Below are positions 1 through 10,652 of a DNA stretch of 10,663 nucleotides, piece by piece. The stretch's first letter is position 1, and every line of letters begins with the position of its first letter. A model generated the notes under the pieces. That model saw nothing but the letters and a program-made list of their open reading frames with translations. It was not told the origin of the DNA and searched no databases. Both the position numbers and the translations under genes were made by a program. The stretch comes from a virus. Its lineage: Duplodnaviria > Heunggongvirae > Uroviricota > Caudoviricetes. The stretch lies in the IMG/VR virus record IMGVR_UViG_2802429253_000003; one strand, given 5' to 3'.

Positions 1-818
1 CTATTAATATAGTATACTATTCCTCCGTCAGCCATCAATTGACATGGAATACATTCTACATTAAGACGATAATTTATTTCTGGCTATTACTTCTTGTTTC
101 TTCATGTTTTTTTATTAAAAATTATTCAAAAATATGGTTTTGCATTAGCTTTATCAGCATTGCTCTAGCATGTGATAACTTAATATTATTGCATTTTATG
201 GATTCACGTTATCCTATATGGTATTGGGCCAAAGGGCTTGAACTAGCATCCAGCTTATATATCATATGCACTCTAATGTATTTTATATTTTTGAAATTAA
301 AATATTCAGATTATCTGGCTTCACACGATTTTTTAACTAACACTTATAATAGAGGTGGTTTTTTAAATGCCTTCAAGACAATATTAAAAAATAACAATAA
401 TAATTCCATTTGTGTATTAATGCTCGACATTGATCACTTCAAGAAGATAAATGACCAGCATGGACATCACACTGGAGATATAGTAATAAGCACAGTAACA
501 AAAATTATTGCAAAGACAATCAGGAACAAAGATTTATTCGGCCGACTTGGAGGGGAAGAATTCGCCATTGTATTCAATGATCTTTCATTTTCTCAGATCT
601 CAGCAATCAGCGAAAGAATAAGAAGGAATGTTGAAGTGAAAACACAAAATCTTACTGTTAAATATGGGGTTGAAAGAGTCACTATCAGCATAGGTGGGTT
701 CATCACTCTTTCAAATAAACTCATGCCTTCAGAAATCTTGGCTCAAGCAGATGAATCGCTATATGAAGCCAAAAGAACTGGCAGAAACAAGGTAATCATA
801 CATAGCGAGATATCATAG
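1..818 (+). CDS. Membrane-anchored GGDEF-domain diguanylate cyclase, probably 5'-partial
   Basis: The ORF track starts it at a TTG at nt 39, but the frame has no stop between nt 1 and 39 and no Shine-Dalgarno precedes the TTG, so the gene most likely starts upstream of the window. The N-terminal ~90 aa is hydrophobic (about three predicted TM helices). The C-terminal ~165 aa has GGDEF hallmarks: GGEEF active-site motif (nt 549-563), an RxxD I-site (RNKD) five residues upstream, and an LDIDHFKKIND metal-binding stretch. Very AT-rich, Asn/Lys/Ile-rich codon usage, unlike the adjacent phage genes. Confidence 0.85.
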   Translation, partial: INIVYYSSVSHQLTWNTFYIKTIIYFWLLLLVSSCFFIKNYSKIWFCISFISIALACDNLILLHFMDSRYPIWYWAKGLELASSLYIICTLMYFIFLKLKYSDYLASHDFLTNTYNRGGFLNAFKTILKNNNNNSICVLMLDIDHFKKINDQHGHHTGDIVISTVTKIIAKTIRNKDLFGRLGGEEFAIVFNDLSFSQISAISERIRRNVEVKTQNLTVKYGVERVTISIGGFITLSNKLMPSEILAQADESLYEAKRTGRNKVIIHSEIS

Positions 819-862
819 CTATTTAGTGGCAACAGACGATATTATACTTACTGATCATTAAA

Positions 863-894
863 CCGCAGCATATTACCAGTATAATTTGCTGCGG
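863..894. terminator. Perfect 8-bp inverted repeat (ccgcagca / tgctgcgg) with a 16-nt AT-rich loop between two convergent coding regions; possible weak terminator
   Basis: Seen directly in sequence. It lies 45 nt after the stop of the GGDEF gene and 19 nt after the stop of the tfa-like remnant. On the minus strand it is followed by TTTAAT. The loop is long and the U-tract poor, so termination is uncertain. Confidence 0.3.
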
Positions 895-912
895 AATATA
901 ATTAACTAGTTT

Positions 913-1041
913 TCAATTAGCTGCAGGAATGAGAGGCCACTCAGTATCCGGTGCAGTTGATGTATCAACACGGTTCAGCAACACCCGATACTTCTTCCAG
1001 GCTTCCAGCAACGAGGTTTCGCCCTCCGTTGCATATACAGC
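913..1041 (-). pseudogene. tfa: 3'-terminal remnant of a tail fibre assembly gene (Tfa C-terminal domain only, no start codon)
   Basis: The minus-strand frame translates to [42 protein letters not shown] then stop (TGA at 913-915). This matches the conserved C-terminus of lambda-type Tfa proteins as I remember them (..[29 protein letters not shown]..). It is bounded upstream by an in-frame stop at 1042-1044 and has no start codon or RBS. Confidence 0.6.
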
Positions 1042-1050
1042 TCACCTTTT

Positions 1051-1374
1051 TCACCCGCGATTAACCAACAGCCAGACCAGCAGACACGCCACCACCGGCA
1101 CAGCAAAATCCATCAGGCTTGCCACATCCCATGCACGTGGATCAAAACCGCCCCACCACGGCATGTTAATCCGCTTGCCATGCCCGAACATTTCAATCCA
1201 GCGATATTCTGCCTGGGTGTGTTCCCGCGCAATGAAGAATGTACAACCGGCTATCGCCCCGTAAGCCCAGTTTCCGGTAAAAAGACCAACCAGTACCTGC
1301 GCAGCCACAGCACAAAGCGCATGAAGAAAAGGTGTTATATCCATTTTCATCCTACCCAATAAAACGGGGCGCAT
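1051..1374 (-). CDS. Small hypothetical inner-membrane protein (about 97-107 aa, two predicted TM helices, Trp-rich connecting loop)
   Basis: ORF with two hydrophobic helices (ITPFLHALCAVAAQVLVGLF and FAVPVVACLLVWLLV). It starts 11 nt after the stop of the upstream 346-aa gene, preceded by an AAGGG Shine-Dalgarno-like element. Alternative internal starts exist at codons 9 and 11. GC near 55 percent. The plus-strand ORFs overlapping it have implausible composition. No family recognised. Confidence 0.6.
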   Translation of the reverse strand: MRPVLLGRMKMDITPFLHALCAVAAQVLVGLFTGNWAYGAIAGCTFFIAREHTQAEYRWIEMFGHGKRINMPWWGGFDPRAWDVASLMDFAVPVVACLLVWLLVNRG

Positions 1375-1385
1375 AGCCCTTAATA

Positions 1386-2426
1386 TTATTTAGACGCAAG
1401 CGTCGCCTCAATTGCAGATAATCTTTGCCTTAATTCTGCGTTTTCTTCTTCCAGTACTGTTATTCTGTCGTCTGACTCTCTGGCTACCTGAACAAGCAAG
1501 CCAGTAACACCAGAATAATCTACTGTGTAATAACGTTCACCTTCTTCACCTTCCGATCCGCTTGCACCGTCCTGATATTTCATTGCGGAACCTACAACTT
1601 CTGGGATTGCTTCCAGAGCTTCCTGTGCAATGACACCTGCATAGGGCATACCGTTTTCTTTAAGCGTGTATGTATAGCCGTTCATTTTACGGATGCGGTC
1701 GGTTGCATTATCGATCACCTGAATGTTGTCTTTCAGATCCCGGTCAGAATGCTGGTTAAATGCGGTGGCATGACATGCACCATTAACGCTTAACATATAG
1801 GTGTTATCGGTATTTTTCTGCGCATAGAACATATACGCGCCACCATCAGCACCAACTTCATATACAACCGGACGGGTAGAGTTACCCCACAAACTAGTAG
1901 TAGCGCCAGAATGAGCGGTCCCCTGTGTGTTTAATGTCATGGTTGACCCATGATTGGCATATTTGATTTGTAATGTGTCTGTGCAGTCAAACTTAATAAG
2001 CGCGTTACTTCCCCGCACACCATACGACATGAGACAGTTCCCCATCTTAAGGTAACCATCACTGCCTGGAAAAATTAATGTTCCGCCGTAAAGATCGCTA
2101 AAATCCCAAAAGATACCTTTTGTTCCATTGTGTGTGACAATCCTTGTCATTGTATCTTTTGTACCGTCAATATTTTTTCTGGTGTACATCTCACTATAAG
2201 CGTTTTCGGTTTCTCCTGTCTTATTTGACAAGTGAATCTTACCGCTAAATATAGTTCCAGTGGTCGGCAATGTCTTTTGATCATAGATTACATTGCAATA
2301 ACTATTCCATGTTGTTTTATTGTCTACATATGATTTTGTTGCGTAGCTCCCTTGATCGTTTTTTAATTTGCTAACGTCGGATTTTAGCGTTTTGATATCA
2401 TCAGGAATTACTGTCGATGTAGCCAT
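1386..2426 (-). CDS. Tail fibre / fibre-tip protein with C-terminal peptidase-S74-type intramolecular chaperone (autoproteolytic) domain
   Basis: The C-terminal ~120 aa (HSDRDLKDNIQVIDNATDRIRKMNGYTYTLKENG...GVIAQEALEAIPEVV...YTVDYSGVTGLLVQVARE...LEEENAELRQRLSAIEATL) has the hallmarks of the endosialidase-type chaperone domain: an S-D-x-x-x-K Ser/Lys dyad context (Ser227 codon at nt 1746-1748, Lys232) and a terminal coiled-coil. The N-terminal ~225 aa is Gly/Thr/Asn-rich and beta-like, consistent with a receptor-binding domain. Strong RBS (GAGGAAGG) 9 nt spacing from the upstream ORF; GC lower than the core phage genes. Confidence 0.8.
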   Translation of the reverse strand: MATSTVIPDDIKTLKSDVSKLKNDQGSYATKSYVDNKTTWNSYCNVIYDQKTLPTTGTIFSGKIHLSNKTGETENAYSEMYTRKNIDGTKDTMTRIVTHNGTKGIFWDFSDLYGGTLIFPGSDGYLKMGNCLMSYGVRGSNALIKFDCTDTLQIKYANHGSTMTLNTQGTAHSGATTSLWGNSTRPVVYEVGADGGAYMFYAQKNTDNTYMLSVNGACHATAFNQHSDRDLKDNIQVIDNATDRIRKMNGYTYTLKENGMPYAGVIAQEALEAIPEVVGSAMKYQDGASGSEGEEGERYYTVDYSGVTGLLVQVARESDDRITVLEEENAELRQRLSAIEATLASK

Positions 2427-2435
2427 TTTCCTTCC

Positions 2436-2717
2436 TCACATCCAGCCACGAAGTTGATGCTCAACAGCAACCGCGTATTCATCGAATAATGACGATATTT
2501 GCGAATCATTAATGATGCGCACGTTTACAAAATATCCGTCCTCCTTAACACATACCGGCTCGCCATCTTCAGTAAGTTCTCCGGTTTCTTTGTACACATT
2601 ACCTATCACGTCAATAAGAATATCATCCTGCATCGACTCGTCATCATAATAGCCAATACTCTCCATAAAGGCCGAAAAGTCGGCCCTGTCGGCAAATTTG
2701 AGTGTTAAATCTTTCAT
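2436..2717 (-). CDS. Small, highly acidic hypothetical protein (93 aa) translationally coupled to stf
   Basis: Its ATG (2715-2717) overlaps the stf TAA stop (2717-2719) as TAATG. By my count it has about 21 Asp/Glu against 7 Lys/Arg. It sits where tfa is found in lambda but has no Tfa-like motifs. No family recognised. Confidence 0.55.
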   Translation of the reverse strand: MKDLTLKFADRADFSAFMESIGYYDDESMQDDILIDVIGNVYKETGELTEDGEPVCVKEDGYFVNVRIINDSQISSLFDEYAVAVEHQLRGWM

Positions 2718-5092
2718 TAGATTGACTCCCCCATCTGAGCATCAGTCAATGCCTTGTGCCATATTCTGAAATTCCTGACATGACCAAATAAATGACGTAA
2801 CCCGGCTGTAGTCTGGCCTCCAATACGGATAATTGCGGTGTTCTGAATACAGGACCATGTGGTTTTTGTTTCGCTGGATATATGCCCGTTACTTACTGAG
2901 CACGTAGACTGCTCTGACTTTACACGCATCCCCATAACCATTTTTTCAAGCGATGCGTTTTCGTTTACCCGTCTGTTAGCTCCTCCAATATCGCAATAAG
3001 GAAATCCGTCATAATCTGTTGAACGACCGAAGCCAAGAATAATAGCCGCTCCGGTTTGATGACCGCCGGTATCAAAAACACGCGGTGCTGCATTTGGCGT
3101 TTTATACCAGTTCTTATGTACCTCACAAAGAACTGTAAAAGGAAGATTATAAAGGTTATTCTTGATTGGGACTGTCACCATATCGCTTGCGCGAGTGCTT
3201 GCAGTTATATCAGTTACAATAAATGACGAAGCACTTGATCCACCTTCCACTTGTGGAGTTGCGATATCCAGATAGTCTCCAGATGCTGTGCCTGAACCTT
3301 TTACTGGAGCATATTGAACCATCGCACCAATCATGCTCTCTGTATCTAGTGCATTAATTGTAGCCTGATAGAAAATCCAACCAGTAGCCTCATCTTTTAC
3401 AGCTTTTGCAATAATACGATTTGCTGCACCACCAGTCTTATCAATTACAAGTGTTGATAAATTGAGGTAAGCATCTCCCAAAAAAGTGTAAGTAGAACCA
3501 TCATGATGTTCAAATCTTAAACGACACCTTATATTTTCAACATCACTTCTGACACGGCATGAAATGGTCACATATTTTTCATCACCTGTGACATCAAATC
3601 CTTTACTGCCAGAAACCGTTACGATATTAATCGCACTTGTCTGATCAATAAGAGTATCTTTTACAGTAAATCTCCCATAAGTAAAATTAAAAGAATCCGT
3701 GGATATTTCTGTGAGTTCCAGATTGCCTGACTTATTCCATTTAGATGGATTTGTTGAATTAAGCAGAAGATTAGTTCTTTGCCCCTCAATAAGCAGGCCA
3801 TCACGTTCAAATCGCGGCTCGTCAATGGCAGCCTCTGTCAGTACACCAGATTTATTAATATAGGTTGCTTTCGATGCGCGTTTAAACTTTACAATCTTGT
3901 CGCCAGGCATTGTTATTTCATCGTCGCCAATAACAATTTTTTTATATGATGGCGAAAAGCCCGTAATCATATCCAGTGAATCGTTAAACGGTATCCACAC
4001 ATCAGGAAGCGGCTGTAAGACATATTTATACGGCTCTGCTGCCTGGCTTGCGTACTCCCTGGCTGCGTCTTCGCTTGCTTTAGCTGCCGTCTGGCTTGCT
4101 GCCGATGCTTTCGCTGAGTTATCCGCCGCAGTCTCGCTCGCCTTTGCGTTGGTTTCACTGGTTTTTGCAGCTTTTTGACTGTTGGCTGATGCAGTGGCAG
4201 AAGAAGCCGCCGCACTTGCAGAACTGGCTGCGGCACTCTCGCTTTCAGCTGCTGCATCCTGACTGCTTTTCGCCGCAGTTTCACTGGCTTTGGCATTCGT
4301 TTCGCTGGTCTTCGCTGCCGTCTGGCTGGACTTTGCGTTAGTTTCACTCGTCTTCGCAGCTTTCTGGTTGTTAGCCGCAGCAGTTGCTGATCCAGCTGCT
4401 GAAGTCGCAGAACCGGCTGCCGCGCTCTCGCTTTGGGCTGCTGCAACCTGGCTGTTTTTTGCCGCAGTTTCACTGGCTTTAGCATTCGTTTCGCTGGTCT
4501 TCGCTGCCGTCTGGCTGGACTTTGCGTTGGTTTCGCTCGTCTTTGCGGCTGTCTCGCTATTTTTCGCGTTGGTTTCTGATTTTTTGGCTGCTGTCGCGGA
4601 GTTTGCTGATGCAGTCTGTGAGGCCGCTGCCGCCTGTGCACTATTAGCTGCATTCGTTTCTGAGGTTTTCGCCGCGTTCTTCGATGATGCCGCTGCAGTT
4701 TCTGATTTCTTTGCCGCCGCTGCGCTCTGAGAGGCGGCTTCAGCGTTGCGTGCCGCTTCTTCCACCATTTCCTCAAAACGACGCAATGCCTCCGGCATGA
4801 CATCATCTTCCGTCATGGCACCGAGAAAATCATTCAGCGTACCTGGTCTGGAACCTTCATAGACGGTAATGGTCCCGGCATGTGAAGGCGGAAAACCTTC
4901 AACCAGCAGGATGACGCTGTACTGGCCATACTCAACATCCATGCTGTAACGCCCGGCTTCATCCGGATTTTCAGAGGCCACCGTGTTCACCAGTACCGTG
5001 GTGCTGTTACGTTTTGCTTTCAGCTGGATTGTGCAGTTCTGTACCGGTTTTCCTGTGCCGTCTTTCAGTACACCTGAAATCTTTACTGCCAT
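2717..5092 (-). CDS. stf: Side tail fibre protein Stf: lambda-like N-terminal domain, Ala/Ser/Thr-rich repeat shaft, divergent distal domains ending in a putative LamG-like lectin fold
   Basis: N-terminus MAVKISGVLKDGTGKPVQNCTIQLKA... matches lambda Stf as remembered. The ORF track begins at GTG 5098, but the ATG at 5092 gives the lambda-like MAVK start with GGGGTGA upstream. The central region is repeats of the type AAKTSETNAKSSQTAAKTSETNAKASETAAK. The last ~110 aa end in ...GHVRNFRIWHKALTDAQM, resembling the C-terminal signature of LamG/concanavalin-like jellyroll domains. Confidence 0.9.
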   Translation of the reverse strand: MAVKISGVLKDGTGKPVQNCTIQLKAKRNSTTVLVNTVASENPDEAGRYSMDVEYGQYSVILLVEGFPPSHAGTITVYEGSRPGTLNDFLGAMTEDDVMPEALRRFEEMVEEAARNAEAASQSAAAAKKSETAAASSKNAAKTSETNAANSAQAAAASQTASANSATAAKKSETNAKNSETAAKTSETNAKSSQTAAKTSETNAKASETAAKNSQVAAAQSESAAAGSATSAAGSATAAANNQKAAKTSETNAKSSQTAAKTSETNAKASETAAKSSQDAAAESESAAASSASAAASSATASANSQKAAKTSETNAKASETAADNSAKASAASQTAAKASEDAAREYASQAAEPYKYVLQPLPDVWIPFNDSLDMITGFSPSYKKIVIGDDEITMPGDKIVKFKRASKATYINKSGVLTEAAIDEPRFERDGLLIEGQRTNLLLNSTNPSKWNKSGNLELTEISTDSFNFTYGRFTVKDTLIDQTSAINIVTVSGSKGFDVTGDEKYVTISCRVRSDVENIRCRLRFEHHDGSTYTFLGDAYLNLSTLVIDKTGGAANRIIAKAVKDEATGWIFYQATINALDTESMIGAMVQYAPVKGSGTASGDYLDIATPQVEGGSSASSFIVTDITASTRASDMVTVPIKNNLYNLPFTVLCEVHKNWYKTPNAAPRVFDTGGHQTGAAIILGFGRSTDYDGFPYCDIGGANRRVNENASLEKMVMGMRVKSEQSTCSVSNGHISSETKTTWSCIQNTAIIRIGGQTTAGLRHLFGHVRNFRIWHKALTDAQMGESI
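4083..4740. repeat. In-frame tandem direct repeats inside stf (189-bp period, at least two full copies, within a broader degenerate short-unit repeat region)
   Basis: Near-identical DNA at 4276-4340 and 4465-4530 (offset 189 nt, 63 codons), and again at about 4143 versus 4332. These encode the Ala/Ser/Thr-rich shaft repeats of Stf. Confidence 0.8.
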
Positions 5093-5103
5093 ATTCACCC
5101 CAC

Positions 5104-5156: not shown

Positions 5157-5756
5157 TCAGAACTTATAACCGACACCCACGATGAAACCGTCAGTGCGCC
5201 AGTCGCCACTGCCGGAGCCTTCATAAGCAATATCAATGGCCACGGATTCGGTCGGGTTAAACTGCACGCCAGCTCCCCACGCCAGAGACGTGTTGCTGTG
5301 GCGACCGTCATCACTTCCGGTCAGCACATCGTGCGTTTTCCCCTTGTTGTCAGTTACGCGAAGATAATCCCCGGAGAAAGTCGACACACGGCTGTAAGCC
5401 ACACCCGCCATCGCATACGCGCTGAACCATTCATTCACGCGCACAGACGGCCCCGCCATCACGCTGAACCAGCGGTTACGCACGGAATCTTCATGCCAGC
5501 GGGTATCGCTGTAATGGGTTTTTTGCTCATCTTTGGCATTGGCATAACTGAATGACGTCACCAGCCCCAGCGTGTCCGTAAATTCATAACGGTATTTCAC
5601 GTTAATGCCCTTCAGGTCATCACTGCCTGGCATATCAGTATGGGTCTGAAGATACCCGGCGCTTAGTGTGGACTGATGCTCTGCTGCGCTCGCTGGCGTA
5701 CCAGCGGCAACCAGCCAGACTACTGCGGACAGAATAACAGCACATAATTTACGCAT
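5157..5756 (-). CDS. lom: Lom outer-membrane protein (Ail/Lom/PagC/OmpX family beta-barrel)
   Basis: 199 aa with an N-terminal signal peptide ([24 protein letters not shown]) and the typical C-terminal ...[10 protein letters not shown]. Near-identical to lambda Lom as remembered. RBS GAGAGGT upstream of the ATG. Confidence 0.93.
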
Positions 5757-5823: not shown

Positions 5824-8800
5824 TCAGCTGATACTGATGCCTGCGGTGGCTTTCTTCATCACCACAACCAGCAAATCGCTGATACTTGCTGTGGGATACC
5901 AGTTATTTACCAGCCATGCTGACACCGAAAACTCCAGTGTCATGTGACCGTGACCGGCAGGCATATCAATAACGCCACTGTAAATCAGCGTATTATCCAG
6001 CGCGGTACGGTTATAAATTTCAGCACCGTTTTTCCGCACTATCAGACGGCATGAGGAGTAAATATCAGTATGCTCTCTCTCATGCTTAGCGCCACTGAAT
6101 GCCACCGCCGGAATAACAATTTGCCGGTCAAACGGCTGATCGTCATAAACCCTGACGGTAATGGTCCCTGATGGCCACCGCTCCGGTGCTCGGGAGTCAC
6201 GGGGGAAAGCTTTGCCCACTGTTTTAACGAGATCGCCTTCAATCTGGTTCGCGGACAGTTTTCCCAGAACCCGACAGTTCTCGTTAATCGTGACGTTGTT
6301 GAGCGTCCCGGAGTTCGCATTCACGTTACCGCTGATATCGGCATTTTTCGCCGTCAGCCGCCCGTCCGGCGTCAGGGAAAATGCAGGAGGATTACCGCCG
6401 CTGGTGATGGTCGGGGCCGTCAGACGCTTCAGGAACACGTCGTTCATGAATATCTGATCGCCCTGACCAACAAACATCGGCTTTGTGTTGCCATTCGCAG
6501 GATTAATCATCGCAATCCTGTCCGCCGCCAGCAGCACCTGACTCTGCATACCGTCAGGAGTATTCTCAATACCGGCACCAATACCCGCGATATAAAGGCG
6601 TCCGTCCTGCATCTGCTGCAGCTTCACAGCCCACATGCTGTTCAGGTTATTATTTGTATCAACCTGAACCTTCTGTATCTGCTGGATCGCTGCACTCTGG
6701 TCTTCCAGTTTCTTATTGACGGTCTGCGTGATTTCATTGCTGACACCCGTAATGGACGTCCTGATTTCAGCCAGGTCAGGCGCAAGCTGACCGTTATCAA
6801 TCTGCGTCCACAACTCCTGAGCCAGATGGGTTTTCCCTATCTCTCCTTTGAAAAAATTCAGATAGCCGGATGCATCATCACTCGGCTGGCCAACAGCCTC
6901 CACAAATGCCGATTTGCCAACGGTGTTCACACTGCGGATGTAAAAATAATAATCATGGCCCGGTTTGATATTGATACTGGCGGCTATCCAGTACAGCGCC
7001 GTGCCAAGATAGCGTGCTGTGGTTTCAACCTGCCTGATATCCGCAATCCGCTTTTCCGAGAACCAGAACTCAAACTGTACCGTCGGGTCATAAACCGCAA
7101 GATGCGGCGTGGCGGTTATCTGAAAATAGCCCGGAGTCAGCTCAATCTGTGACGGCGCTGCCGGTGCGGCAATCCGGAACGATACCGACGCCGGGTCTCC
7201 CTGCTGCCCCCAGGCATTTACTGCCCGGACTGTCAGCCTGTAGTTCCCCAGCGCCAGCTGCCTGAAGCGGTATGTTGTTTCCGTCGTCCGGGCCGTGCTG
7301 ACCAGCCGCTCACTGCCGTCGTCCGCTGTTACGGTCAGACGGAGCAGGAAGCTCACGCCCTTCACCACCTTCGGTGTGTCCCATCGCGCCAGCACCTGAT
7401 ATTCCCCGCTGTCTGCATTGACTTCTGCGGTCAGGTGCTGCACCGCGGGCGGCGTGACACCGTTCACCGTTCCGCTCTGGTCGCCGTCAAAGTGCGCCCC
7501 GTTATCCACGATGGCTTCTTTCTCCGGTACATGCTGCACGGCAGTGATGGCATACGTGCCGTCATCGTTCTCACGGATACTCACGCAGCGGAACAGGCGC
7601 TGGCGCAGCGTCGGCAGCTTCAGCCCCCACACGCTGTATTCTGCAACGCCGTCAGGAACACGACTCACTTTCACCTTCACGCCGTCGGTGACGGACTGAA
7701 CCTCCACGCTGACCGGATTACCACTTCCGTCAACCAGGCTTATCAGCGTGGTACCGGAGGATGGCAGCGTGATTTCACGGTCGAGCGTCAGCGTCCGGGT
7801 CTGGCTGTTCACCGCCAGCACGCGACCACCGGTGCTGATACCGGCATAGTCATCATCGCAGATTTCAATAACATCGCCCGGCACATGGCGAAGCCCTTCT
7901 GCGCCCACGCTGAAATCCACGGTCTGCGTCTCCAGCAGTTCCGTTTTAATCAGCCACAGCCCGGCGCGGTGTGCCTGCCCCCGGCTGGTACAGCCAAAGG
8001 CATCCATCTTCGTGACATTACGACCGTAACGGGCAATGGCCTGCGTATCTTCAACAAGCTCTGTCGCCGTCTCCCAGCCGTTATTCGGGTCAATCCAGTT
8101 CACCTCAACGGCATTATGGCGGTCCTTCAGGGCGCTGAAGCTGTAGCGGAACGGCGCGCCATCATCCGGCATCACCACATTACTGCGGTTATAGGTCCAC
8201 ACCTTATCCGACGGTCGGTCCTGCACGAACGTCAGCGTCTGCCCGTTCCATACCGGCATACAGCGCATCGCCGAGCAGAAATCGCTGAGAACATCCCACG
8301 CCTTACGCTGCGTGGTCAGGTAAGCGTTACAGGTGATGCGCGGCTCCGTGCCACCAAAGCCATCCGGCACCGACTGGTCGCAATTCTGGCCGATGACATA
8401 CAGCGCCCATTTATCCACATCCGCTGCACCAAGACGTTTCCCCATGCCGTAGCGCGGATGGGTCAGCATATCCCACAGACACCAGGCCATGTTGTTGCTG
8501 TATGCCGGTTTAAACGTTCCGTCCCAGATACCGCTGTATTGTCGCGTCTGCGGGTTATAGTTCGACGGCACCTGCAGAATGCGCCCGCGCAGATGATAAT
8601 TACGGCTCACCTGCTGGCTGCCGAACTGCTCCGAATCCACCTGCACGCCGACCAGTGCCGTGTTCGGGTAGCACTGTTTCACATCGATGATTTCGGTGTA
8701 TGACGACCAGAGCGTTTTGTTCTGCAGCTGGTCTGTGGTGCTGTCCGGCGTCATCCTGCGCATCCGGATATTAAACGGGCGCGGCGGCAGGTTACCCACC

Positions 8801-9303
8801 ACCACCGAGGCCAGATACTGCGAGGTGGTTTTGCCCTTAATGGTGATGTCTTTTTCCGTCACCCAGCCACCGTTACGTTGTATCTGAACCAGCAGGCGGA
8901 CTTCCGATGGATTCCTGTCCCCCTTTGAGGTGGTTTCCACCAGTGCCTGCACACCGAAGGTAAAACGCAGACGGTCGATGTTTGCCGACGTGATGGTCCG
9001 GGTGATCGGCGTGTCGTATTTCACTTCCGTACCCAGTACCGTCTCGGAACCTGATGATTCAAATCCCTCCGGCGGTGTCTGCTCCTGCTCACCTGCCCGG
9101 AACACCACCGTGACACCGGAGATGTTGGTATTCCCCTCACTGTCCAGCACCGGTGTACTGTTCAGCAACACGCTTTTTAATCCATCCCCCGGACCTTCAA
9201 TCGGCCCTTCGCTGATGGCATCGATCACACTCAGCAACTGCGTGGATTTCAGGTTGTCCTTCGCTTCGCGCGGGGTATGCCCCTTACTGCTGCCTTTACC
9301 CAT
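5824..9303 (-). CDS. J: Tail tip / host specificity protein J (central tail fibre)
   Basis: 1159 aa. The N-terminal ~800 aa ([38 protein letters not shown]...) is recognisably lambda J. GGAG Shine-Dalgarno about 9 nt upstream of the ATG. The C-terminal part appears more divergent from lambda J as I remember it. Confidence 0.95.
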
Positions 9304-9363: not shown

Positions 9364-10011
9364 TCATCGACCAATCACCACAACCTGACCACCATCCCCT
9401 TCGTCTGCCGTGCTGATCTCCTGAGATACCACGCGTGACCCCACGCGCATTTCACCGTACAGAACGGGCAGAACATTCCCCTGGGCAACCATGTTATCCA
9501 GTGAGGAGAAATACGTGTTCTGTTTGCCGTTATCCGTTGTCTGTGTGCGGGGAGTTCTGGCTTTCGGTGCCAGCATCTGCGCCACACCGCCCAGGATCAT
9601 ACTGGCCCCTACCGCATACATACCCGATACAGCCGCGACACCCAGCCAGCCCACAGGGTTCCACCATGCCACCGCAATCAGCGCAGCCCCCAGCACTGCC
9701 TGAAAAACACCGCCACTTTTGGCACCCGCCAGACGCGGTACGATGTGGATCACGGCACCATTTGCCAGCGGCTCATTAAGACGGGCAGATAATTCGTTTT
9801 CGCCTGCATCACGCCCGGCAATGCGCACCTGATACCAGCCCTCATTCAGTTTCTGACGAAACGCCGGGAGCTGCGTGGCCAGCGCCCGGATAGCTTCGGC
9901 TCCCGTTTTCACACGAAGGTCGATGCGGTGGCCAAATCGTTGCAAATCCCCGTAAAGGCAGATGCGTGCCATGCCCGGTGACGCCAGAGGGAGTGTGTGC
10001 GTCGCTGCCAT
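9364..10011 (-). CDS. I: Tail assembly protein I
   Basis: 215 aa. N-terminus MAATHTLPLASPGMARICLYGDLQRFG... and C-terminus ...VLPVLYGEMRVGSRVVSQEISTADEGDGGQVVVIGR match lambda gpI as remembered. The start lies inside the 3' end of K. Confidence 0.9.
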   Translation of the reverse strand: MAATHTLPLASPGMARICLYGDLQRFGHRIDLRVKTGAEAIRALATQLPAFRQKLNEGWYQVRIAGRDAGENELSARLNEPLANGAVIHIVPRLAGAKSGGVFQAVLGAALIAVAWWNPVGWLGVAAVSGMYAVGASMILGGVAQMLAPKARTPRTQTTDNGKQNTYFSSLDNMVAQGNVLPVLYGEMRVGSRVVSQEISTADEGDGGQVVVIGR

Positions 10012-10652
10012 TTGTCGGTATACCTCTCTCGTTTGCTCAGTTGTTCAGGAATATGGTGCAGCAGCTCGCCGTCGCCGCAGTAAATGGCGGCATGATTCGG
10101 CACCGATGAACCAAAGCAGCACAGCAGCACATCGCCCGGCTGCGCCTCTGTCAGTGCGGCACGGTAAAAACCAGTCGCCTCCATATTGTCAAGATAGAGA
10201 TTCTGGCCGTTACGCCACCAGTCATCCCCGCGATGAAAATCCGGCATCTCAATTCCCGCCAGATGGTAAGCGTCCCGGAACAGCGTGTAACAGTCCGTCA
10301 CCCCGTGCTCAAAGCGCCGCCCGGTGAGATGCGGCACACAGCGGAACTTATGAATCGCCCCCCGGCAGACCAGCCACCACGGCAAATCACTCTGCACCTG
10401 CAGCCGCCGGTCGGCCTCACTCAGCCAGGGCAGACCACCGGGATGACTGTGGACCAGCGCCACAATCTCACCCTGCATTTCTGCCTGCAGCCAGTCCTCC
10501 GGCGACATCCGGAAATAATCCTCCGGCTCACCGGAAATATTCACGCAGGGAAAATATCTTTCCCCCTCCGGCGTTCTCACCACGAAGCCGCACGACTCCG
10601 CTGGCGCACATCGCCGGGCGTGCGCCAGAATCGCTGATTCTGTCTCTGTCAT
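9909..10652 (-). CDS. K: Tail assembly protein K (MPN/JAMM domain plus NlpC/P60-like domain)
   Basis: 247 aa. JAMM motif HSHPGGLPWLSEAD (H-x-H-x7-S-x2-D) and a C-terminal NlpC/P60-like Cys/His context (GVTDCYTLF ... NHAAIY). It overlaps I by 103 nt in another frame, the same overlap length as I recall for lambda. Confidence 0.9.
   Translation of the reverse strand: MTETESAILAHARRCAPAESCGFVVRTPEGERYFPCVNISGEPEDYFRMSPEDWLQAEMQGEIVALVHSHPGGLPWLSEADRRLQVQSDLPWWLVCRGAIHKFRCVPHLTGRRFEHGVTDCYTLFRDAYHLAGIEMPDFHRGDDWWRNGQNLYLDNMEATGFYRAALTEAQPGDVLLCCFGSSVPNHAAIYCGDGELLHHIPEQLSKRERYTDKWQRRTHSLWRHRAWHASAFTGICNDLATASTFV

Follow-up and report, generated by a model that had tools for sequence, protein, structure and literature searches.

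A likely distal subunit of a multi-protein side tail fibre, with a predicted self-cleaving S74 chaperone, in a lambdoid prophage

Analysis of a stretch of 10,663 nucleotides from a tailed virus (IMG/VR record IMGVR_UViG_2802429253_000003; the whole stretch is called the window below) identifies the window as the tail-fibre end of a lambdoid prophage, with the prophage genes on the minus strand, and shows that it encodes a protein of 346 amino acids (aa) ending in an intramolecular chaperone of the peptidase S74 family. In our view this protein probably serves as the distal subunit of a side tail fibre made of several proteins, plugged into the proximal fibre protein Stf and processed by its own self-cleaving chaperone. 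A prediction made beforehand from the sequence alone (the original prediction) had placed such a chaperone at 1386-1763, which corresponds to aa 222-346 and the stop codon; our results support it on the identity of the domain and, broadly, on the role of the protein. The gene and the parts of its product are as follows.

1386-2426, minus strand: gene of the 346-aa protein, probable distal side-tail-fibre subunit (open reading frame; stop codon at 1386-1388)
2331-2426, minus strand: conserved N-terminal motif MATSTVIPDDIKTLKSDVSKLK and short helix, aa 1-32 (motif conserved across cassettes)
2097-2324, minus strand: most variable, beta-rich domain, aa 35-110 (column entropy; AlphaFold2 strands)
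1749-1955, minus strand: fibre tip domain directly before the predicted cleavage site, aa 158-226 (profile match to T4 gp34)
1389-1748, minus strand: intramolecular chaperone (peptidase S74, Pfam PF13884), aa 227-346, with predicted release as a 13.2 kDa fragment
1593-1748, minus strand: Pfam S74 core, aa 227-278 (PF13884)
1731-1748, minus strand: predicted Ser-Lys dyad, Ser227-Lys232 (Ser227 at 1746-1748 and Lys232 at 1731-1733, codons read directly)
1392-1517, minus strand: C-terminal helix, aa 304-345 (AlphaFold2)

The search with Pfam hidden Markov models bears out the chaperone. Residues 227-278 align with positions 1-57 of the 58-position profile PF13884 Peptidase_S74 with an expectation value (E) of 6.4e-14 and 52.4 bits, the Pfam gathering cut-off for this family being 22, and aa 227-346 are confirmed as an S74 intramolecular chaperone domain. 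This domain makes up the final 120 residues of the protein and is its most conserved part, as judged from column entropy in 49 distinct family members. Compared with solved structures, the sequence is matched best by the C-terminus of Salmonella phage S16 gp37, which carries a chaperone (6f45, profile E 9.3e-8) and whose SSDRRIK aligns with HSDRDLK of the window protein, and a tblastn search finds aa 136-346 to be similar to T5-like L-shaped tail fibres (E 4e-7). HSDRDLK occupies aa 226-232, with the serine opening the domain and the lysine at position +5. In an alignment of 32 homologues (identity range 36-93%) each of S227, D228, R229, D230, L231 and K232 is conserved in at least 90% of the sequences, and the downstream chaperone is largely invariant. 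In the pb1 fibre of phage T5, for which mechanism and cleavage site are established, the Thr1263-Ser1264 bond is cut, Ser1264 being the nucleophile activated by Lys1269 at +5, and the chaperone terminates in a trimeric coiled coil (PMC4690869). Because pb1 is cut before Ser1264 and has the same Ser/Lys(+5) spacing, the scissile bond of the window protein is predicted to be His226-Ser227, in agreement with the dyad and the cleavage at Ser227 foreseen by the original prediction. The computed masses are 24.8 kDa for aa 1-226 and 13.2 kDa for aa 227-346, the latter close to the fragment of about 13 kDa that had been anticipated. The coiled-coil tail proposed on the same occasion has its counterpart in the long helix that AlphaFold2 predicts at the end of the domain (aa 304-345; pLDDT, the model's per-residue confidence, 76-84 in the distal part).

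Upstream of the chaperone, the protein has the composition of a small fibre. Its N-terminal motif, MATxTVIPxDIxxLK, is common to the third-gene products of lambdoid, T1-like, T5-like, 9g-like and Dhillonvirus fibre cassettes (described below), and in the alignment of homologues coiled-coil-like repeats follow it in varying number; a helix at aa 10-24 is present in the AlphaFold2 model. We propose that aa 1-32 comprise a docking peptide, a role suggested by this conservation, and the start of a coiled-coil stalk. Column entropy peaks in aa 35-110, where AlphaFold2 places strands with pLDDT of about 70-78 and for which very few relatives were found outside this Escherichia coli (E. coli) family in a collection of 1.84 billion cluster representatives; this domain is the candidate specificity determinant. 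The segment aa 116-157 is missing in several homologues. Residues 158-226, directly before the predicted cleavage site, are homologous to a repeated domain of T4 gp34, the alignment profile matching the gp34 structures 4uxe, 5nxf and 5nxh with E of about 2e-7. Counterparts of residues 110-219 are found at the C-termini of long fibres (621-1,358 aa), and phrog_6578 and phrog_5668 also match the tip region. Pfam and NCBIfam scans of the 346-aa protein detected nothing besides S74, that is, neither an enzymatic domain nor an N-terminal anchor domain. With no enzymatic domain detected, the protein is to be regarded as a fibre and not as a depolymerase spike, and therefore any specificity for capsule or O-antigen, as suggested by the original prediction, would be one of binding only. 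An endosialidase-type depolymerase spike was considered as a separate candidate and rejected: there is no catalytic domain, the upstream part measures only 226 aa, and the structural relatives are solely fibre domains of T4 gp34.

The ATG of the 346-aa reading frame is preceded by a good ribosome-binding site, with the Shine-Dalgarno sequence AGGAAGGA 5 nucleotides upstream, and the product matches phrog_4563 ('tail fiber protein' in PHROGs) over its full length (E 3e-208). The RefSeq label of the gene is 'tail fiber domain-containing protein', and E. coli W46 is among the strains that have it with a nucleotide identity of 99.9%; of 5,426 complete E. coli genomes, 250 contain it at a coverage of at least 80%. 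It is also carried by viable phages that have been isolated, e.g. Tritos, 2G7b, HannyBb and ESCO3. The sequence clusters of the protein hold thousands of members with PF13884 precomputed, as it is for about 115 of the 120 listed homologues, and annotations of homologues elsewhere read 'endosialidase chaperone' or 'peptidase S74 domain-containing protein'.

Further insight comes from the genes that accompany this one. The gene is the third of a cassette whose order is proximal fibre (here Stf), acidic protein of about 92 aa and distal S74 fibre; the first two members are represented in the window as follows.

2717-5098, minus strand: stf, 793-aa proximal side tail fibre (PF08400 prophage tail fibre N-terminal, E 3.8e-68)
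2720-3991, minus strand: lectin-like C-terminal module of Stf, aa 370-793, proposed socket for the distal subunit
2436-2717, minus strand: 93-aa acidic protein, second cassette gene (phrog_1361 match)

The original prediction had set the S74 protein next to Stf. It does belong to the same fibre cassette, but the two genes are not directly adjacent, the 93-aa gene (2436-2717) lying between them; this gene overlaps the stf stop codon by 1 nucleotide and ends 10 nucleotides before the S74 gene. Stf itself consists of a phage_tail_N anchor, an alanine-rich repeat shaft and a conserved C-terminal module of about 420 aa, which matches NF048003 GTA_spike_fiber and is similar to the fibre of the head spike in the gene transfer agent of Rhodobacter (RcGTA; 6tb9, E 8.8e-5). 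The shaft (aa ~110-350) is built from Ala/Ser/Thr-rich repeats (KTSETNAK.S.TAA...) that yield long spurious open reading frames, e.g. 3967-4806 on the minus strand and 4290-4730 on the plus strand, which are not genes.

The same organization is found well beyond lambdoid prophages. The family of the 93-aa protein, phrog_1361, occurs in 181 phage records, always directly after a lateral or side fibre gene, and the order proximal fibre, protein of about 92 aa and third gene is seen in Nonagvirus ESCO3, Drexlerviridae PeterMerian, Dhillonvirus KarlBarth, Vequintavirus JeffSchatz and Tequintavirus VSe12; in Lambda_ev203 a gene for a membrane protein takes the third position. The proximal fibres of the cassette have differing N-terminal anchors and shafts and the C-terminal module of about 420 aa in common, with aa 370-793 of Stf 45-72% identical to the C-termini of six other proximal fibres. 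The gene order recurs in 9g-like, T1-like, T5-like and Dhillonvirus genomes, and in those contexts that were checked by blastp identity amounts to 51-72% for the proximal module and 39-52% for the small protein. The N-terminal motif is common to the proteins encoded by the third gene in the window, ESCO3, PeterMerian and KarlBarth, the bodies of which differ. Moreover, four distant S74 proteins (326-348 aa, about 40% identity) from T5-like, 9g-like and T1-like genomes each stand behind a homologue of 91-92 aa, and a proximal fibre with the same module lies upstream in three of these four loci, i.e. wherever the contig reaches that far. Short S74 proteins of 230-350 aa are the standard third gene of the cassette, and the view that a small separate protein of this kind is out of the ordinary does not hold. 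The family is already annotated. On the other hand, the separately encoded tip subunit of a side fibre put forward in the original prediction gains support from the third-gene position and the N-terminal motif, both conserved over five phage lineages, which point to such a role.

Third genes are split, frameshifted or truncated in some loci. That of KarlBarth (locus L004, 4770-5649) is split into a 98-aa N-terminal piece and a separate 196-aa Phage_tail_C_2 protein, that of VSe12 (L006, 5398-6231) has lost both the N-terminal motif and the chaperone, and truncated copies of 189, 323 and 309 aa are seen in other prophages (L033, L055, L065).

A survey of IMG/VR used the 93-aa protein and its homologue from ev203 to retrieve loci (both queries found certain contigs, so that the counts include some duplicates) and sorts them into three classes by their third gene, the last class, of about 45 ev203-type loci, having none. 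The first, with 44 loci, encodes the S74 protein with a modal length of exactly 346 aa. The second, with 40 loci, encodes a 234-aa protein that has the same N-terminus, is mostly coiled coil and ends in a divergent S74-like region (SSIRYK); its T1-like homologue in PeterMerian scores at the Pfam threshold. This shorter allele (L022, L037, L070 and about 40 others; 6292-6996) has about 60 residues of coiled-coil repeats and a tip of about 45 aa, and its predicted mature fibre would be only about 115 aa long. The 346-aa and 234-aa genes are swapped beside near-identical 93-aa genes with the N-terminus remaining the same, and T5-like contigs carry third proteins of 576 and 586 aa that combine the N-terminal motif with a collar-like domain and the chaperone. 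Variation concentrated in aa 35-110, combined with a conserved chaperone, is what one would expect of a receptor-binding part that can be exchanged and is flanked by conserved arms for recombination. This mosaic of conserved N-terminus, variable middle, conserved chaperone and swapped alleles fits a cassette-type exchange of that part by homologous recombination.

Based on these data, the following course of assembly can be envisaged. Three chains would associate via the C-terminal S74 chaperone (aa 227-346), which would template the folding of a trimeric tip domain (aa ~158-226). In the correctly formed trimer Lys232 would activate Ser227 and the His226-Ser227 bond would be cut, freeing the 13.2 kDa chaperone and leaving a mature fibre, a trimer of 226-aa chains of 24.8 kDa. 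By its conserved N-terminus (MATSTVIPDDIKTLK and the short coiled coil) the mature trimer would then plug into the lectin-like module of about 420 aa of Stf, a docking that we infer by comparison with related cassettes. The 93-aa protein may take part in the joint between Stf and the distal subunit, and the variable domain (aa 35-110) and the tip would face a cell-surface receptor, most likely a glycan.

Several observations weigh against this scheme. The AlphaFold2 monomer model computed from the 32-sequence alignment is poor (pLDDT 56.8), with low confidence over aa 225-300 and values below 50 across aa 225-280, and a Foldseek search of the PDB with this model gave only weak T4 gp34 matches, the best of them being 4uxe (E 0.028). 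The quality of the monomer model would be compatible with an obligate oligomer, of which it is no proof. In the roughly 45 prophage loci of ev203 type, Stf and the 93-aa gene are kept but a third gene is lacking, the 93-aa gene being followed directly by a homologue of the 107-aa membrane protein that is encoded downstream in the window; the distal subunit is thus dispensable. Since the 93-aa protein is retained in these loci, it belongs with Stf rather than with the S74 protein, either helping Stf to fold or forming part of the socket. Furthermore, the attachment to Stf is a comparative argument here, the receptor class is one that we infer, and some annotators label the third gene 'lateral tail fiber chaperone' or 'endosialidase chaperone'.

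All three other explanations that we weighed are disfavoured. The best of them, which we nevertheless hold to be unlikely, is that the protein forms an independent short fibre attached elsewhere on the virion, to the tail tip, J or another tail protein instead of Stf. The comparative nature of the docking argument and the absence of the third gene from ev203-type cassettes leave room for it, and branched or separately anchored fibres do exist, ManiWeber gp114 with its own baseplate anchor being an example (PMC11990801). However, the N-terminal motif is conserved in lambdoid, T1-, T5-, 9g-like and Dhillonvirus phages despite their differing tail tips. A motif that is kept across lineages with unrelated tail tips must have a partner that travels within the cassette, and only the proximal-fibre module and the 93-aa protein travel along, which makes them the candidate dock. 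In those phages the gene always stands behind this same module and the gene of about 92 aa, and an independent fibre would moreover have to do without an N-terminal anchor domain, Pfam finding S74 alone.

Improbable to a higher degree is that the product does not belong to the virion at all and acts in trans as an assembly chaperone of Stf. The labels 'putative lateral tail fiber chaperone' in PeterMerian and 'endosialidase chaperone' in ESCO3 speak for such a function, as does the 234-aa variant, which has only about 115 residues, mostly coiled coil, before its S74-like domain. Yet all characterised S74 domains work in cis on their own polypeptide (PMC4690869), and the part preceding the chaperone in the window protein holds a tip domain with homology to T4 gp34 as well as to the end regions of long fibres. 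In addition, the hypervariability of aa 35-110 resembles that of a receptor-binding domain, where a chaperone would be expected to be conserved, and an Stf with the same C-terminal module occurs without the third gene. As for a decaying remnant, namely a C-terminal piece that recombination in a defective prophage left over from a once long, single-chain fibre, the presence of tip and chaperone at the ends of long fibres, the tfa remnant just downstream (935-1050) and the known truncated or frameshifted copies (189, 323 and 309 aa) would agree with it, but we reject this pseudogene reading as very improbable on the conservation of length (modal length exactly 346 aa in 44 IMG/VR loci; 250 E. 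coli genomes at a coverage of at least 80%), the gene's own Shine-Dalgarno sequence and ATG, and its presence in the viable phages Tritos, 2G7b, HannyBb and ESCO3, to which is added a conserved N-terminal motif that is not found on long fibres.

The remaining features of the window, the first six of them on the strand of the fibre genes, are listed here.

9909-10652, minus strand: K (gene order)
9364-10011, minus strand: I (gene order)
5824-9303, minus strand: J, 1,159 aa (gene order)
5157-5756, minus strand: lom (gene order)
1051-1374, minus strand: 107-aa predicted membrane protein (phrog_1443)
935-1050, minus strand: remnant of the 3' end of tfa (annotated pseudogene in E. coli A33)
39-818, plus strand: C-terminal part of a MASE4 sensor and GGDEF diguanylate cyclase gene (within the stretch 1-934, rich in adenine and thymine)

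The gene of the 107-aa protein starts 11 nucleotides after the S74 gene and, lying at the end of the prophage, may serve in lysogenic conversion or exclusion. NCBIfam holds no model for the 346-aa, 93-aa or 107-aa protein, and a promoter and terminator scan of window positions 700-2800 gave none above the shuffled expectation. The tfa remnant looks like a relic of an older invertible Stf/Tfa module displaced by the present cassette; in E. coli A33 an invertase gene adjoins it. Positions 1-934 have a guanine and cytosine content of 29-38% vs. about 45-53% in the prophage, and they gave no megablast match in the 5,426 complete E. coli genomes; at the nucleotide level the gene at 39-818 is no more than about 64.5% identical to a diguanylate cyclase of E. 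coli. This leaves two readings, a host other than typical E. coli or an accessory gene located at the border of the prophage. The prophage of E. coli W46 adjoins zinT and not a diguanylate cyclase gene, and has an IS200/IS605 transposase gene between lom and stf (locus L001, 15849-16307) in an otherwise near-identical fibre module.

The protein family, the domain and the architecture of the cassette are already known from databases and from the papers on the BASEL phages. Literature searches returned no experimental study of the lambdoid 346-aa protein. The only loose end of some novelty concerns the nature of the joint and of the 93-aa protein, which may be an adaptor or assembly factor for the C-terminal module of Stf. 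The tips of side and lateral fibres set which O-antigen or capsule types a phage can approach, and an exchangeable, self-processing distal subunit would aid the prediction of host range from sequence. It would also offer a compact retargeting module for lambda-based delivery particles, composed of a conserved N-terminal plug, a variable middle and a conserved chaperone.

Lateral fibres of siphoviruses can consist of one polypeptide or of two or more proteins (PMC8594841), and the closest parallel to the arrangement proposed here is found among the latter, in the Tequintavirus IrisVonRoten (Bas32). On the basis of AlphaFold-Multimer models, its gp24 is described as a 'T-shaped' fibre with an intramolecular chaperone, placed on the proximal fibre gp22, which itself ends in a galectin-like domain (PMC11990801). 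The three-gene order gp22/gp23/gp24 is the same as in the window; the C-terminal module of Stf is 64.6% identical to the C-terminus of gp22, the 93-aa protein is 39% identical to gp23, and gp24 shares with the 346-aa protein the N-terminal motif MxTxTVIPxDIxxLK and the C-terminal S74 chaperone. The T5-like third proteins of 576 and 586 aa from our survey are orthologues of gp24 (83.5% identity). On the other hand, gp24 has 574 aa and an extra gp12/collar-like lateral domain (RBD1) that gives it the T shape and that the 346-aa protein does not have, the variable domain aa 35-110 is unrelated, and the overall identity is only 24%. The anchoring differs too, being of T5 LtfA type for the proximal fibre of IrisVonRoten whereas Stf has a lambda Stf-type N-terminus.

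A genetically supported precedent for a second fibre protein attached via a first one is the LtfA-LtfB pair of phages DT57C and DT571/2, whose O-antigen specificity is carried by the fibre proteins (PMC4728585, PMC10713586). Here, too, a lateral fibre is formed from two separately encoded proteins. No intervening gene of about 92 aa is reported for DT57C, and the site of LtfB on LtfA was deduced genetically and not from a conserved N-terminal motif. T5 pb1 (4UW7/4UW8; PMC4690869) shares with the window protein the C-terminal S74 chaperone, the Ser/Lys(+5) dyad, the long terminal helix and, as predicted for our protein, the cut before the serine. It differs in being a single polypeptide of 1,396 aa anchored directly to the tail, whereas tip and chaperone reside here on a separate protein of 346 aa, and binding to O-antigen (polymannose) is shown for pb1 only. 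The chaperone of the endosialidase tailspike of phage K1F, endoNF, is the founding member of MEROPS S74. Its Pfam family and the logic of Ser-Lys self-cleavage are the same; endoNF has, however, a sialidase catalytic domain, none being detectable in the 346-aa protein. Finally, Stf of the window shares with that of lambda the N-terminal anchor PF08400 and the genome position after J and lom. Lambda Stf requires the separate chaperone Tfa and has its own receptor-binding tip, whereas in the window just the 3' remnant of tfa is left (935-1050) and the fibre protein has a lectin-like module at its end, with the 93-aa gene and the S74 gene coming next.

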